DNA of 64,000 bases, from the NCBI RefSeq assembly GCF_044647545.1, contig NZ_CP172818.1. One strand, 5' to 3'. Within the stretch, counting starts at the first letter, position 1. The number at the start of each line of letters is the position of its first letter. Source of the DNA: Escherichia coli. GTDB taxonomy: Bacteria; Pseudomonadota; Gammaproteobacteria; Enterobacterales; Enterobacteriaceae. Below the pieces are notes generated by a model, which was not told where the DNA came from, ran no database searches, and worked only from the letters and a program-made list of their open reading frames with translations. Shown in pieces: positions 32,131 to 41,345 of this stretch. Position numbers and translations under genes: made by a program.

Positions 32131-32658
32131 ATGATTTTTCTCATGACGAAAGATTCTTTTCTTTTACAGGGCTTTTGGCAGTTGAAAGATAATCACGAAA
32201 TGATAAAAATCAATTCCCTGTCAGAGATCAAAAAAGTAGGCAATAACCCCTTCAAGGTTATCATTGATACCTATCACAATCATATCCTTGATGAAGAAGC
32301 GATTAAATTTCTGGAGAAATTAGATGCCGAGAGAATTATTGTTTTGGCACCTTATCACATCAGTAAACTAAAAGCTAAAGCGCCTATTTATTTTGTCAGC
32401 CGCAAAGAAAGTATCAAAAATCTTCTTGAGATTACTTATGGTAAACACTTGCCCCATAAGAATTCACAATTATGTTTTTCACATAATCAGTTCAAAATTA
32501 TGCAACTGATTCTGAAAAATAAAAATGAAAGCAATATCACGTCGACGCTCAATATTTCGCAACAAACATTAAAGATTCAGAAATTCAACATTATGTACAA
32601 ACTGAAACTAAGACGTATGAGCGACATCGTCACCCTGGGTATCACATCTTATTTTTAG
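32131..32658 (+). CDS. gadE: LuxR-family acid-resistance master regulator GadE
   Basis: Within ORF 32053..32658; start at MIFLMTKDSFLLQGFWQL gives 175 aa; about 800 bp AT-rich leader upstream. Confidence 0.9.
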   Translation: MIFLMTKDSFLLQGFWQLKDNHEMIKINSLSEIKKVGNNPFKVIIDTYHNHILDEEAIKFLEKLDAERIIVLAPYHISKLKAKAPIYFVSRKESIKNLLEITYGKHLPHKNSQLCFSHNQFKIMQLILKNKNESNITSTLNISQQTLKIQKFNIMYKLKLRRMSDIVTLGITSYF

Positions 32659-32996: not shown

Positions 32997-34154
32997 ATGA
33001 ACAGAAGAAGAAAGCTGTTAATACCGTTGTTATTCTGCGGCGCGATGCTCACCGCCTGCGATGACAAATCGGCGGAAAACGCCGCAGCCATGACGCCTGA
33101 GGTCGGTGTCGTCACACTCTCCCCCGGTTCGGTCAATGTGTTGAGCGAATTGCCCGGTAGAACCGTTCCTTATGAAGTTGCCGAGATACGTCCCCAGGTG
33201 GGCGGTATTATCATTAAACGCAACTTTATCGAAGGCGATAAAGTGAACCAGGGCGATTCGCTGTATCAGATTGATCCTGCACCTTTACAGGCCGAGCTGA
33301 ACTCCGCCAAAGGCACGCTGGCGAAAGCGCTCTCTACCGCCAGCAATGCCCGCATCACCTTTAACCGCCAGGCATCGTTGCTGAAGACCAACTACGTTAG
33401 CCGTCAGGATTACGACACCGCGCGCACCCAGTTGAATGAAGCAGAAGCCAATGTCACCGTCGCCAAAGCGGCTGTTGAACAGGCGACGATCAACCTGCAA
33501 TACGCGAATGTCACCTCGCCGATTACGGGCGTCAGCGGGAAATCGTCGGTGACCGTCGGCGCACTCGTTACCGCTAATCAGGCAGATTCGCTGGTTACCG
33601 TACAACGTCTGGACCCGATTTATGTCGATCTCACACAGTCGGTGCAGGATTTCTTGCGCATGAAAGAAGAGGTCGCCAGTGGGCAAATCAAACAGGTTCA
33701 GGGCAGTACGCCAGTACAGCTCAATCTGGAAAATGGTAAACGTTACAGCCAGACCGGCACGCTGAAATTCTCCGACCCGACGGTGGATGAAACCACGGGC
33801 TCCGTGACGTTACGGGCGATTTTCCCCAACCCAAATGGTGACTTGCTGCCTGGCATGTATGTCACGGCATTAGTGGATGAAGGTAGCCGCCAGAATGTAT
33901 TACTGGTGCCGCAGGAAGGCGTCACCCACAACGCCCAGGGTAAAGCAACGGCGCTCATTCTGGATAAAGACGATGTCGTGCAGCTACGCGAAATCGAAGC
34001 CAGCAAAGCCATCGGCGACCAGTGGGTTGTCACCTCTGGCTTGCAGGCTGGCGATCGGGTGATCGTTTCCGGTTTGCAACGCATTCGTCCGGGTATCAAA
34101 GCACGAGCAATTTCCTCCAGCCAGGAAAACGCCAGCACCGAATCGAAACAATAA
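32997..34154 (+). CDS. mdtE: RND efflux membrane fusion protein MdtE
   Basis: 385-aa ORF with lipoprotein signal (LLFCGAMLTAC) and HlyD-like sequence. Confidence 0.9.
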   Translation: MNRRRKLLIPLLFCGAMLTACDDKSAENAAAMTPEVGVVTLSPGSVNVLSELPGRTVPYEVAEIRPQVGGIIIKRNFIEGDKVNQGDSLYQIDPAPLQAELNSAKGTLAKALSTASNARITFNRQASLLKTNYVSRQDYDTARTQLNEAEANVTVAKAAVEQATINLQYANVTSPITGVSGKSSVTVGALVTANQADSLVTVQRLDPIYVDLTQSVQDFLRMKEEVASGQIKQVQGSTPVQLNLENGKRYSQTGTLKFSDPTVDETTGSVTLRAIFPNPNGDLLPGMYVTALVDEGSRQNVLLVPQEGVTHNAQGKATALILDKDDVVQLREIEASKAIGDQWVVTSGLQAGDRVIVSGLQRIRPGIKARAISSSQENASTESKQ

Positions 34155-34178: not shown

Positions 34179-37100
34179 ATGGCTAACTATTTTATTGATC
34201 GCCCGGTTTTTGCCTGGGTACTTGCCATTATTATGATGCTTGCAGGCGGTCTGGCGATCATGAACTTACCGGTTGCGCAGTATCCGCAGATTGCGCCACC
34301 GACCATTACCGTCAGCGCTACCTATCCAGGTGCCGATGCGCAAACGGTAGAAGACTCGGTCACTCAGGTGATTGAGCAAAATATGAATGGGCTTGATGGC
34401 CTGATGTACATGTCTTCAACCAGCGATGCGGCAGGTAATGCCTCCATCACTCTGACCTTCGAGACGGGGACATCGCCTGATATCGCACAGGTTCAGGTGC
34501 AAAATAAACTGCAACTCGCTATGCCTTCATTACCTGAAGCGGTGCAGCAGCAGGGGATTAGCGTCGATAAGTCGAGCAGTAATATCCTGATGGTAGCGGC
34601 ATTTATTTCTGATAACGGCAGCCTCAACCAGTACGATATCGCGGACTATGTAGCGTCTAATATCAAAGACCCGCTAAGCCGTACCGCGGGCGTTGGTAGC
34701 GTACAGCTCTTTGGTTCCGAGTACGCCATGCGTATCTGGCTGGACCCGCAAAAACTCAATAAATATAACCTGGTACCTTCCGATGTTATTTCCCAGATTA
34801 AGGTGCAAAACAACCAGATTTCCGGTGGTCAACTGGGTGGCATGCCACAGGCGGCAGACCAGCAACTGAACGCCTCGATCATTGTGCAGACGCGTCTGCA
34901 AACGCCGGAAGAATTTGGCAAAATCCTGTTGAAAGTTCAGCAAGATGGCTCGCAAGTGCTGCTGCGTGATGTCGCCCGCGTCGAACTTGGGGCGGAAGAT
35001 TATTCCACCGTGGCGCGCTATAACGGCAAACCTGCTGCGGGGATCGCCATCAAACTGGCTGCCGGAGCAAACGCCCTGGATACCTCGCGGGCAGTCAAAG
35101 AGGAACTGAACCGTTTATCGGCTTATTTCCCTGCAAGCCTGAAGACGGTTTATCCTTACGACACCACACCGTTTATCAAAATTTCTATTCAGGAAGTTTT
35201 CAAAACGCTGGTTGAGGCTATCATCCTCGTCTTCCTGGTCATGTATCTGTTTTTGCAGAATTTCCGCGCCACAATCATCCCGACGATTGCCGTACCGGTG
35301 GTTATTCTCGGGACGTTTGCGATCTTGTCGGCGGTCGGTTTCACCATCAACACGTTAACTATGTTCGGGATGGTGCTGGCGATAGGGTTACTGGTGGATG
35401 ACGCCATCGTGGTGGTGGAGAACGTCGAGCGTGTCATTGCGGAAGATAAGCTACCGCCGAAGGAAGCGACGCATAAATCGATGGGGCAGATCCAACGTGC
35501 GCTGGTCGGGATTGCCGTTGTTCTTTCCGCAGTGTTTATGCCGATGGCCTTTATGAGCGGTGCAACCGGGGAGATCTACCGCCAGTTCTCCATCACGCTG
35601 ATCTCCTCCATGCTGCTTTCAGTATTTGTGGCAATGAGCCTGACCCCTGCCCTGTGCGCCACCATTCTGAAAGCCGCGCCGGAAGGCGGTCACAAACCTA
35701 ACGCCCTGTTCGCACGCTTCAACACGCTGTTTGAAAAATCAACTCAGCACTATACCGATAGCACCCGCTCGCTGTTGCGTTGTACCGGTCGCTACATGGT
35801 GGTCTACCTGCTGATTTGCGCCGGGATGGCGGTGCTGTTCCTGCGTACGCCGACCTCTTTCTTACCAGAAGAGGATCAGGGGGTATTTATGACCACCGCG
35901 CAGTTACCTTCCGGTGCCACCATGGTTAACACCACGAAAGTGCTGCAACAGGTGACGGATTATTATCTGACTAAAGAGAAAGATAATGTTCAGTCGGTGT
36001 TTACCGTTGGCGGCTTTGGCTTCAGCGGCCAGGGGCAAAACAACGGCCTGGCGTTTATCAGTCTCAAGCCGTGGTCTGAACGTGTCGGTGAGGAAAACTC
36101 GGTTACCGCGATCATTCAGCGGGCAATGATTGCGTTAAGCAGTATCAATAAAGCCGTCGTCTTCCCGTTCAACTTACCCGCGGTGGCTGAACTGGGTACC
36201 GCGTCAGGTTTTGATATGGAACTGCTGGACAACGGCAATCTGGGGCACGAAAAACTGACCCAGGCGCGAAACGAGCTGTTATCACTGGCAGCGCAATCAC
36301 CGAATCAGGTCATCGGGGTACGCCCGAACGGCCTGGAAGATACGCCGATGTTCAAAGTGAACGTCAACGCTGCGAAAGCCGAGGCTATGGGGGTGGCGCT
36401 GTCTGATATCAACCAGACAATTTCCACCGCCTTCGGCAGCAGCTACGTGAACGACTTCCTCAACCAGGGGCGGGTGAAAAAAGTGTATGTCCAGGCAGGC
36501 ACGCCGTTCCGTATGTTGCCGGATAACATCAACCAATGGTATGTACGCAACGCCTCTGGCACGATGGCACCGCTTTCTGCCTATTCGTCTACCGAATGGA
36601 CCTATGGTTCACCGCGACTGGAACGCTACAACGGCATCCCGTCAATGGAGATTTTAGGTGAAGCGGCGGCCGGGAAAAGTACCGGTGACGCCATGAAATT
36701 TATGGCAGACCTGGTCGCTAAACTTCCGGCAGGCGTCGGCTACTCATGGACCGGACTGTCGTATCAGGAAGCGTTATCCTCAAATCAGGCTCCCGCGCTG
36801 TATGCCATTTCACTGGTCGTGGTGTTCCTCGCCCTCGCCGCACTTTATGAGAGCTGGTCAATTCCGTTCTCGGTGATGTTGGTTGTACCGTTAGGCGTCG
36901 TTGGCGCATTAATGGCCACCGATCTACGCGGCTTAAGTAATGACGTCTACTTCCAGGTTGGTTTGCTGACCACCATCGGGCTTTCCGCCAAAAACGCCAT
37001 CCTGATTGTCGAATTTGCCGTTGAGATGATGCAGAAAGAAGGGAAAACGCCGATAGAGGCAATCATCGAAGCGGCGCGGATGCGTTTACGCCCAATCCTG

Positions 37101-37292
37101 ATGACCTCTCTGGCCTTTATTCTCGGCGTGCTGCCGCTGGTTATCAGTCATGGTGCCGGTTCTGGCGCGCAAAACGCGGTAGGTACCGGCGTGATGGGCG
37201 GGATGTTTGCCGCAACAGTGCTGGCAATTTACTTCGTTCCGGTCTTTTTCGTTGTAGTGGAACATCTCTTTGCCCGCTTTAAAAAAGCGTAA
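34179..37292 (+). CDS. mdtF: RND efflux pump MdtF (AcrB family)
   Basis: 1037-aa ORF, AcrB-like 12-TM transporter, directly downstream of mdtE. Confidence 0.9.
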
Positions 37293-37654: not shown

Positions 37655-38383
37655 TCAGGAAAAGGTACCTGGCGAATGTTGCGCAAACTGATGTGGCGTT
37701 ACACCATAATATTGTCGAAATGTGTTTATAAAGTACGACGTACTGCTATAGCCACATTTTTCCGCAATAGTATGCAGAGGAATTTGACGTAACTCGAGTA
37801 ATCGTCTGGCCATCGACATCCTGGAGGCGAGTAATATTTTACTGAAACAGGTATTTTCATCCTGCAACTTTTTTTTGATGAGACTCTCGCTGGTATACAT
37901 TCTTTCCGCAATATCGCGCAGATACCAACGTTTGGCGATATCAAAGCTAATAAGGCGTTCAACTTTTCCTGAAACAGTACTGATACTATTGAAAAGTAAG
38001 GGGATCAGTTCTTTCTTATGAGAAAACATCGATAAACAGGAAAGATAGAGCATTTTGCTCAATATCGGCGAATTTACCCCGGAGTCATTGAAACTATCAA
38101 AAATCGCCGTCACCAGCGGCATGGGGGGTGACTGGTTAATTAACAGACGGTCTTTGCTATGTAACCCTAAATTGCGTGGTATCTGACGAATATTTTGTAA
38201 GTAATGGCAAACTGTCAGCTCATCGATATCCAGTCGTCGTGTATCCGGTGAACAAAACGCAAAATCGTCTGCCAAATTTTTATCCAGTAACAGGATACTC
38301 TCGTTATGCAACGATATTTTTTGCTGTTCATGATGAATATCGAATGAACGACGAACGAGGATCACCGAGCAGACATGAGTCAT
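37655..38383 (-). CDS. gadW: AraC-family regulator GadW
   Basis: 242-aa ORF with C-terminal AraC-type HTH; synteny with gadX. Confidence 0.9.
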   Translation of the reverse strand: MTHVCSVILVRRSFDIHHEQQKISLHNESILLLDKNLADDFAFCSPDTRRLDIDELTVCHYLQNIRQIPRNLGLHSKDRLLINQSPPMPLVTAIFDSFNDSGVNSPILSKMLYLSCLSMFSHKKELIPLLFNSISTVSGKVERLISFDIAKRWYLRDIAERMYTSESLIKKKLQDENTCFSKILLASRMSMARRLLELRQIPLHTIAEKCGYSSTSYFINTFRQYYGVTPHQFAQHSPGTFS

Positions 38384-38629
38384 GACTATCCCTTATATTT
38401 CATTGCTGCGATTATTTCAATTTCAGTATACTAATGAAATGATGCCTGACTGTTTCTTAGCGCAAAAACTGCCAGATTTGGTAGGACCAAAATTTATCCA
38501 CAAAGTAGTTTTGCATAACAGTTAATTGATAATAAGTAAATGCAACACGAATATATTTTCGCACAGCGTATAGCTTATGTTTATAAAAAAATGGCTGATC
38601 TTATTTCCAGTAAAAGTTATATTTAACTT

Positions 38630-38735
38630 ACTGAGAGCACAAAGTTTCCCGTGCCAACAGGGAGTGTTATAACGGTTTATTAGTCTGGAGACGGCAGACT
38701 ATCCTCTTCCCGGTCCCCTATGCCGGGTTTTTTTT
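38630..38735 (+). ncRNA. gadY: GadY small RNA, antisense to the gadX 3' end
   Basis: Sequence ACTGAGAGCACAAAGTTTCCCGTGCCAACAGGGAGTGTTATAACGG...CCGGTCCCCTATGCCGGG followed by T8 matches my recollection of GadY; lies on the strand opposite gadX/gadW and ends at a terminator abutting the gadX stop. Confidence 0.75.
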
Positions 38736-38751
38736 ATGTCTGAGTAAAACT

Positions 38752-39576
38752 CTATAATCTTATTCCTTCCGCAGAACGGTCAGTGCCGTAAAAATTCCCT
38801 TGCGCAGCCATACTTGCCGCCGGGCCACAGTTCGGTAATTCCTGCGCCGATCGCTCCTGATACTCTGTGGGCGTCATCCCATAATAATTTCGAAAAACGT
38901 AAATGAAATACGACACGCTGTGATATCCACAGGATACTGCAACTCGCTTAATTGAAACCCCATATATAACAATAAGTTGTAAAGCACGCTGCATCCTACA
39001 CTCAGTAAGCAACTGTGAATATGACGTACCTTCTTCGCGCAATTTTTTCTTTAACAGGCTTGGACTCATCAACAATTCGCTAGCGATTCGGGCTAATGTC
39101 CACTCATGGGCGATATTATTATTGATGACCGTACAAACTCGTGTTCGCATATTCGGTTGCAACACGTTCAGAAGTAACGGTATAAACTGCGTATCCTCAA
39201 GAAAAACAGATAACAACGCAAAGATTAATGCCCTTTTACGTAGCATTTCTGCATAGCGAAGATTCTTATTCTGCGACAGTTGCGCAACTTCCTGAAAAAC
39301 AGGAATATCTCTGGTACAGTGATGAACGAGTAATGAAGGAACTTTTTTATGTGCATGAAGTTTTAATGCCTCCTCCTTGAGCATCGGGAGAAATAATGAA
39401 AGCGTGTCTCTTGAAACTAATACGAAATTCTCAACACACTTATCCACTTGAATTTGGCTTGCATCCGCAAAAACCAGATCACCGCCATTAAAATAGCGAT
39501 ATTCACCATTAACCATGGTGAGAATATATTTATGTCTTGCGTACGCAATTAGACAATTACCATGTAGTGGTTGCAT
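38752..39576 (-). CDS. gadX: AraC-family regulator GadX
   Basis: 274-aa ORF MQPLHGNCLIAYARHKYILTMVNGEYRYF... with AraC-type HTH. Confidence 0.9.
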   Translation of the reverse strand: MQPLHGNCLIAYARHKYILTMVNGEYRYFNGGDLVFADASQIQVDKCVENFVLVSRDTLSLFLPMLKEEALKLHAHKKVPSLLVHHCTRDIPVFQEVAQLSQNKNLRYAEMLRKRALIFALLSVFLEDTQFIPLLLNVLQPNMRTRVCTVINNNIAHEWTLARIASELLMSPSLLKKKLREEGTSYSQLLTECRMQRALQLIVIYGVSIKRVAVSCGYHSVSYFIYVFRNYYGMTPTEYQERSAQELPNCGPAASMAAQGNFYGTDRSAEGIRL

Positions 39577-39944: not shown

Positions 39945-41345
39945 TCAGGTATGTTTAAAGCTGTTCTGCTGGGCAATACCCTGCAGTTTCGGGTGGTCGC
40001 TGAGATATTTCAGGGAGGCTTTGTAGTCTTCCAGCAACAGTTCAGCAAAGTCCATTTCGAAGCCGCGACGACACATAATGCGCATCACCACGATGTCAGT
40101 GGCTTCACCGCCGAGAGTGAAGGCCGGAACCTGCCAGCCGCGCAGACGCAGACGTTCAGAGAGGTCGTAGAGGGTGTATCCTGGATCTTCACCATCTTTC
40201 AGTTTGAAGCAAACCGCCGGGATGCCTTCGTCCGGGCGACCGGTACAGATGAACTCATACGGCCCCAGTTTGGCGATTTCATCCGCCAGATAAGCGGCAA
40301 CCTGGTAGGAAGCGTTCTGTACTTTGGTATAGCCTTCACGACCGAGGCGCAGGAATTCATAGTACTGTGCAATCACCTGACCCGCCGGGCGGGAGAAGTT
40401 GATGGCGAAAGTACCAATCTGACCGCCGAGGTAGTCAACGTTGAACACCAGTTCCTGCGGCAGCGCTTCTTCATCACGCCAGATAACCCAGCCGCAGCCC
40501 AGCGGAGCCAGACCGAATTTATGGCCTGAAGCACTGATCGATTTCACACGCGGCAGGCGGAAGTCCCAGACGATATCCGGGGCGACGAACGGTGCCAGGA
40601 AGCCACCGCTGGCGGCGTCGATGTGCATGTCGATGTCGATACCGGTGTCGGCCTGGAATTTATCCAGCGCATCGTGCAGCGGCTGCGGGAACTCATAGTT
40701 ACCGGTGTAGGTCACGCCGAAAGTCGGCACCACGCCGATGGTATTTTCGTCGCAGGCTTCAATCATGCGTTTCGGGTCCATAAACAACTGACCGGGGCGC
40801 ATAGGGATCTCACGCAACTCCACATCCCAGTAGCGGGCGAATTTATGCCAGCAGATTTGTACCGGACCGCACACCAGGTTTGGTTTATCCGTTGGTTTGC
40901 CTGCGGCTTCCATACGCTTGCGCCAACGCCATTTCATCGCCATCCCGCCGAGCATACAGGCCTCGGAAGAACCAATGGTGTTGGTGCCAACGGCCTGACC
41001 ATTTTTCGGTGCAGGCGCATGCCACAGATCGGCAACCATGTTTACGCAACGCAGGTCGATTGCAGCGGATTGCGGATATTCTTCTTTGTCGATCCAGTTT
41101 TTATTGATCGACAAATCCATCAATTTATGGACGTTTTCGTCGTCCCAGGTCTGGCAGAAAGTGGCCAGGTTCTGACGAGCGTTGCCATCAAGATATAATT
41201 CATCATTGATAATCTGAAATGCAACATCATCGCGCATTTCGTGCAGCGGAAATCGTTTTGACTCCGCGATAGTAGAAATGGCCTTTGCACCAAAACGTGA
41301 ATCGAGTAGTTCTGAGCGGAAATCCGTTAACAGCTTCTGGTCCAT
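39945..41345 (-). CDS. gadA: glutamate decarboxylase A (PLP-dependent)
   Basis: ORF 39945..41408; start at [40 protein letters not shown] gives 466 aa; PLP-lysine region [10 protein letters not shown]. Confidence 0.95.

Follow-up and report, generated by a model that had tools for sequence, protein, structure and literature searches.

The + strand at 38630-38735 of the window (the whole 64,000-nucleotide stretch of DNA that was analysed) is almost certainly the gene for GadY, the cis-encoded antisense small RNA of the acid fitness island, and none of the observations speaks against it. The sequence-only reading had proposed GadY here, with a start at 38630, and had named an Rfam search beforehand as the test that could refute it. 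When the whole window was searched with Rfam 15 at gathering thresholds, four matches were obtained, and GadY (RF00122) ranked first (38627-38740, + strand; 150 bits, E 8.3e-32; the gathering score of the family is 45). The match spans model positions 1-114 of 114, is not truncated, and has zero mismatches to the consensus. Comparison with the known GadY sequence by BLAST gave the same answer: 106/106 nt are identical to the ncRNA gadY, b4452, of K-12 MG1655, and by this identity the proposed start is the annotated 5' end. A score of 150 bits combined with 100% identity to a characterised gene is far beyond chance.

The element is already known; it was described in 2004, is listed in Rfam, and is annotated in K-12. 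In PMC3050690 and PMC5686845, it is given as an RNA of 105 nt, accompanied by 90- and 59-nt forms with a common 3' end. The identity and boundaries of the gene, its terminator, its geometry relative to gadX, its conservation, and its omission from automatic annotation were all observed directly, and the features of the locus are collected in Table 1.

Table 1. Features of the gadW-gadY-gadX region, in window coordinates
Feature	Position	Strand	Basis
gadW, AraC-family regulator, 242 aa; co-oriented with gadX and downstream of it	37655-38383	-	ORF list; RefSeq annotation
ATGGCTGA, match to the AppY-binding motif ATGSCWGM	38591-38598	+	Regular-expression match; overlaps the gadY -35 region
Weak -35-like hexamer CTGATC (3/6 vs TTGACA)	38595-38600	+	Read from the sequence; 17 bp from the -10
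-10 hexamer TATATT (5/6)	38618-38623	+	Read from the sequence; separated by 6 nt from the annotated 5' end
GadY sRNA	38630-38735	+	RF00122 at 150 bits; 100% identity to K-12 b4452
5' compound stem-loop with outer, middle and inner helices	38630-38676	+	Minimum-energy fold, in agreement with the Rfam consensus
Second stem-loop UAGUCUG-GAGACGG-CAGACUA, 7 pairs	38681-38701	+	Fold and Rfam
GadY intrinsic terminator: 6-pair G+C-rich stem with 7-nt loop (38709-38727), T8 (38728-38735)	38709-38735	+	Scan, fold, Rfam structure
Spacer from the GadY T-run to the gadX stop, ATGTCTGAGTAAAACT, 16 nt	38736-38751		Least conserved stretch of the locus
Predicted gadX 3' UTR / start of gadX-gadW intergenic transcript	38630-38751	-	Geometry, lack of a - strand terminator, K-12 dsRNA; 38630-38735 perfectly complementary to GadY
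gadX, AraC-family acid-resistance activator, 274 aa	38752-39576	-	ORF list; RefSeq annotation of FDAARGOS_497 and K-12

Gene order, annotation and the K-12 counterpart

In a megablast search of complete E. coli genomes, window positions 38400-38900 were 100% identical to FDAARGOS_497, whose record names mdtF, gadW, gadX, gadA, and ccp; the window therefore comes from the acid fitness island of a non-K-12 strain. The gene order, mdtF / gadW / gadY / gadX / gadA, with gadW, gadX, and gadA on the - strand and mdtF on the + strand, is that of the E. coli island. The ORF list places a 1037-aa ORF upstream (34179-37292, +) and the start of a glutamate-decarboxylase-like ORF at 39945 on the - strand. 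GadY lies between gadW and gadX on the opposite strand, and its 3' end is a Rho-independent terminator near the stop codon of gadX (TAG, read in reverse complement from 38752-38754); both features characterise the family. The tail-to-tail, cis-antisense arrangement that had been read from the sequence was thus borne out, the RNA converging on gadX.

The K-12 locus is closely similar. In the curated record, b4452 occupies 3664864-3664969 of NC_000913.3 (+ strand, 106 nt) and gadX 3664986-3665810 (- strand), leaving the same gap of 16 nt as in the window, and in an alignment of the gadW-gadX intergenic region every column of 38546-38760 is identical. The likeness to GadY of K-12 (IS183; RF00122; b4452) covers all 106 nt and the promoter region from 38546 on, and it extends to the terminator, the 16 nt before the gadX stop, and the genes on either side. 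There is no difference inside the RNA, whereas gadX and gadW of the window are 93.9% and 97.0% identical to their K-12 counterparts. Being syntenic and identical in sequence, the window gene is an orthologue of b4452.

It had also been noted that ORF-based annotation misses the gene. This is the case: the RefSeq/PGAP record of FDAARGOS_497 shows only the five protein-coding genes given above, and in the listed PGAP records no annotated feature covers the GadY match, whereas the curated K-12 record has gadY. One example of a PGAP E. coli record with an identical GadY sequence and without a gadY feature is NZ_CP033850.1 (locus L001). The automatic RefSeq records of this strain and of most E. coli genomes therefore lack a gene that regulates the main circuit of acid resistance (GadX to gadA/gadBC). 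The practical value of the finding lies in annotation; as the discovery of an ordinary, known element it carries little weight.

A small protein, rather than a non-coding RNA, could be imagined as the product, since short + strand ORFs of 28 aa (38540-38626) and 31 aa (38577-38672) border on or run into the region. Both ORFs, however, begin upstream of the 5' end at 38630, and no ORF of at least 20 aa was found inside 38630-38735 on either strand. On the latter ground a small protein was rejected, and we regard its probability as negligible.

Promoter, terminator and predicted fold

The gadY promoter scored below the threshold of a simple sigma-70 consensus scan, and the + strand matches that the scan did give, at 38370-38399 and 38857-38885, are misplaced for driving GadY. 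The promoter position given here was assigned manually, with the annotated 5' end and sequence conservation as guides. The sequence GTTATATTT around the -10 element is invariant in 8/8 Escherichia sequences (alignment columns 27-35), and the AppY-type motif is nearly invariant among Escherichia species. In the 2004 description by Opdyke, gadY was reportedly sigma-S dependent; the weak -35 element and the failure of the sigma-70 scan would fit this published dependence. An AppY motif, ATGSCWGM, overlapping the gadY -35 element is described in PMC10057817.

Only one terminator-like site was found in a scan of both strands of 38300-38900: the + strand stem-loop CCCGGTCCCCTATGCCGGG at 38709-38727, which is followed by T8. 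The distance from the T-run to the gadX stop, which had been put at about 16 nt, is exactly 16 nt (38736-38751).

The predicted fold of GadY is no more stable than that of shuffled sequence (z = -0.73), and the fold of the - strand region gave z = -1.92 against shuffles; neither value settles the matter. When eight Escherichia sequences (six of them distinct, and all very alike) were placed on the Rfam structure, 97% of cells paired and 25/28 pairs were invariant; of the three variable pairs, one goes from A-U to G-U and the other two are disrupted in certain species. Neither the second hairpin nor the terminator varies among the Escherichia species sampled. None of the 28 pairs changed on both sides in these eight sequences, covariation being uninformative because the Escherichia GadY sequences are too alike. 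The fold, a prediction, is taken from Rfam and thermodynamics only, and the comparative data speak neither for nor against it.

Antisense pairing with the gadX transcript

Read past the gadX stop, the - strand carries AGUUUUACUCAGACAU, then A8, the hairpin, and finally AAGAGGAUAG. The hairpin stands 25 nt beyond the stop and can form on both strands, with T8 flanking it on one strand and hence A8 on the other, so one may ask if the stem-loop at 38709-38727 is a bidirectional terminator that chiefly ends gadX transcription. We consider this very improbable. On the - strand, the A-run precedes the hairpin, and what comes after it, AAGAGGAUAG, holds no U-tract; the scan of 38300-38900 gave no - strand intrinsic terminator; in K-12, double-stranded RNA reaches 107 nt beyond the stop of gadX (PMC7373196), and PMC5029454 describes a gadXW co-transcript. 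The bidirectional terminator was rejected on account of the missing U-tract. As the hairpin is not followed by a U-tract and the - strand has no terminator of its own, gadX transcription should run through the whole complement of GadY towards gadW.

The sequence-only reading had the 3' end of GadY complementary to the gadX 3' UTR. This is correct, but too narrow: because GadY is cis-encoded, all 106 nt are complementary to a - strand RNA that continues past the gadX stop. Overlap of GadY with the opposite transcript in the window is implied by the geometry and the missing - strand terminator, the extents of the two transcripts being those of the K-12 literature. Published K-12 coordinates in U00096.2 were converted to U00096.3 by the addition of 1,977 bp, which we take to be the difference between the two. 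The same offset is consistent with the fragment coordinates of PMC3050690 when these are set against the K-12 annotation. An abundant cluster of RNase III-derived, p19-captured double-stranded RNA, assigned to gadY and located at 3,662,902-3,662,980 of U00096.2 (PMC7373196), converts to GadY nt 16-94, or 38645-38723 of the window. By these converted coordinates, most of GadY is found as a duplex in vivo in K-12 (PMC7373196). An overlap of at least 30 nt between the GadY and gadX RNAs in K-12 is given in PMC3050690.

The left edge of the double-stranded cluster, 38645, coincides with the 5' end expected of the 90-nt form of GadY if its 3' end is 38734. From this coincidence of ends, the 90-nt form might come from RNase III cutting of the duplex.

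Several consequences of pairing are described for K-12. In PMC5029454, gadXW is processed into separate, more stable gadX and gadW transcripts by RNase III and a further endonuclease, the target of GadY in the later literature is the gadX-gadW intergenic part of gadXW besides the gadX 3' UTR, and the effect of GadY is positive, consisting of processing and stabilisation and not of repression. Stabilisation of gadX mRNA by GadY is likewise given in PMC3050690 and PMC5686845. The two genes are convergent and their transcription units overlap, an arrangement in which collision of converging polymerases, in place of RNA-RNA pairing, could be thought to underlie the effect. Such transcriptional interference would, however, lower gadX expression, and GadY raises it; moreover, plasmid-borne gadY acts in trans on chromosomal gadX (PMC3050690), which supports a diffusible GadY, such an RNA being enough for the effect. 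We give interference hardly any credence, even less than the bidirectional terminator.

The published account of pairing, cleavage, and stabilisation appears, by analogy with K-12, to be the best supported. In the strain of the window it would operate as follows. GadY would be transcribed towards gadX from its own promoter (-10 at 38618-38623, weak -35, AppY-type motif at 38591-38598) and would end at its intrinsic terminator, leaving 16 nt to the gadX stop, while the gadX transcript, meeting no terminator there, would continue past its stop towards gadW. GadY would accumulate in stationary phase or in mild acid, as in the K-12 literature, and would pair with the gadX 3' UTR and with the intergenic RNA that leads on to gadW, immediately downstream of the gadX stop. 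RNase III, together with at least one further endonuclease, would then cleave the duplex, again as in the K-12 literature, and the resulting separate gadX and gadW messages would be more stable than the full-length transcript. GadX would rise and, in stationary phase or mild acid, activate the glutamate decarboxylase genes gadA and gadBC. Transcription, sigma-S dependence, Hfq binding, cleavage, and stabilisation in this strain are thus expectations drawn from the K-12 literature. The account running from GadY through gadX to gadA/gadBC is published (PMC3050690, PMC5029454, PMC10057817, and PMC7286202).

GadY resembles other chromosomal cis-antisense RNAs that RNase III processes together with their targets, such as RyeA/SdsR, SraG opposite rpsO-pnp, and lambda OOP/cII, in that a short RNA lies opposite its target, a perfect duplex is formed, and RNase III is involved (PMC5029454, PMC5415839). 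It differs from them in pairing with a 3' UTR or intergenic region and in raising its target, the outcome for most of the others being repression or destabilisation.

Conservation, roles beyond gadX, and other RNAs of the window

Of 5426 complete E. coli genomes, 5412 carry GadY at 99% identity or more, always on the chromosome and usually in a single copy; the remaining 14 have no match, and at least one genome has it in two places. A 501-bp query that included the flanks (38400-38900) was 95-99% identical in most E. coli genomes. GTDB species representatives were scanned with a 20-mer from the second hairpin, which recovered six Escherichia loci, E. albertii and E. whittamii among them. Paenibacillus harenae and a Lachnoclostridium MAG also came up in the scan and were rejected as carriers, BLAST showing that only the 20-mer was common; these are chance matches. 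Segment identities to the window are listed in Table 2.

Table 2. Identity of segments of the locus to the window (reference) in seven comparison genomes, K-12 and the six Escherichia loci; numbers of differing columns in brackets
Segment	K-12	MOD1-EC7003	SCPM-O-B-8794	E. coli E69	E1V33	E. whittamii	E. albertii
gadW CDS	97.0% (22)	94.4% (41)	92.6% (54)	86.1% (101)	77.2% (166)	75.6% (178)	73.5% (193)
Intergenic upstream of promoter	97.6% (5)	92.2% (16)	86.9% (27)	83.0% (35)	71.8% (58)	70.4% (61)	67.6% (67)
GadY promoter (38590-38629)	100% (0)	92.5% (3)	92.5% (3)	87.5% (5)	87.5% (5)	87.5% (5)	85.0% (6)
GadY	100% (0)	100% (0)	100% (0)	99.1% (1)	97.2% (3)	98.1% (2)	91.7% (9)
16-nt spacer	100% (0)	75.0% (4)	62.5% (6)	56.2% (7)	25.0% (12)	25.0% (12)	35.3% (11)
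gadX CDS	93.9% (50)	50.0% (432; deletion)	90.5% (78)	76.4% (197)	73.1% (224)	75.0% (209)	74.0% (216)

GadY is the best-conserved segment of the locus, at 92-100% identity among Escherichia species; in the three most distant genomes, the gadW and gadX coding sequences stand at 73-77% and the upstream spacer at 68-72%. Between 18 and 34 changes would be expected in GadY in the four most distant genomes, and 1-9 are present (binomial P from 6e-8 to 7e-14); the test is a crude one, in which the upstream spacer serves as a neutral proxy and may itself be constrained. A purely cis-antisense role does not require exact conservation of GadY, because complementarity is kept whatever the sequence. The sequence may serve a second, sequence-specific function, with Hfq-bound targets in trans, in recognition by the endonuclease that cuts the gadXW-GadY duplex or by processing enzymes more generally, or in both ways; we put this forward tentatively, as somewhat short of an even chance. 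That GadY is so much better conserved than the protein-coding genes around it gives a modest hint of sequence-specific functions apart from its pairing with gadX, and does not point to a new system.

A stronger version of the idea makes GadY mainly a trans-acting, Hfq-dependent sRNA of unlinked targets, its overlap with gadX being secondary. We think this unlikely, though likelier than the other alternatives weighed here. The 106 nt are near-invariant while flanking genes differ by about 25%, and pairing in cis leaves this conservation unexplained; in Escherichia sp. MOD1-EC7003, GadY is 100% intact next to a gadX cut down to its last 76 codons. Against it stands the position of GadY, which is kept across Escherichia species with a spacing of 15-18 nt to the gadX stop (15 nt in E. 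whittamii and 18 nt in E. albertii, where the gadX-like ORF is of 271 aa). The overlap region was reportedly required for the effect of GadY on gadX mRNA in the work of Opdyke in 2004. PMC3050690 also has this region as needed for the effect. On the other side, GadY is described as Hfq-binding, with SdiA mRNA reported as a target (PMC11300174), and it is listed as 'trans-acting' in PMC7373196. Roles in trans and in cis are compatible with each other, and the antisense action on gadX remains our preferred reading.

In MOD1-EC7003 (L008:1-1900), gadA ends at 1223 and is followed only by the last 76 gadX codons (1547-1777); this genome lacks the gadA-gadX spacer and the 5' two-thirds of gadX, and GadY occupies 1793-1898 on the - strand of the locus. 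The gadX identity of 50% in this genome was rejected as a measure of divergence, the deletion having left the 3' third only.

The least conserved part of the locus (38736-38850) adjoins the near-invariant GadY; it comprises the spacer together with some 100 nt at the 3' end of the gadX CDS, where the C-terminal tail of GadX is encoded. BLAST alignments of gadX to E. albertii, E. whittamii, E69, and E1V33 begin only ca. 100 nt from the stop. In E69, GadY (L004:11874-11980) differs from that of the window solely by one extra A in a single-stranded A-run near the 5' end (CACAAAG to CACAAAAG), and the flanks are 76-86% identical to the window.

Other small RNAs were matched elsewhere in the window. 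An Rfam match to ES205 sRNA (RF02754; 32776-32847, +, 105 bits), which ends in a hairpin and a U-run, is located ~118 nt downstream of a gadE-like ORF (32053-32658) and upstream of mdtE (32997-34154); we take it to be GadF, an sRNA from the gadE 3' UTR. Two full-length, tandem matches to AgrB (RF02891, 'ArsR-gov region gene B') were found at 14881-14965 and 15113-15196 on the + strand (103 and 108 bits). These presumably correspond to agrA/agrB, the antisense RNAs at the dinQ toxin locus, and form another non-coding pair that would escape ORF-based annotation.
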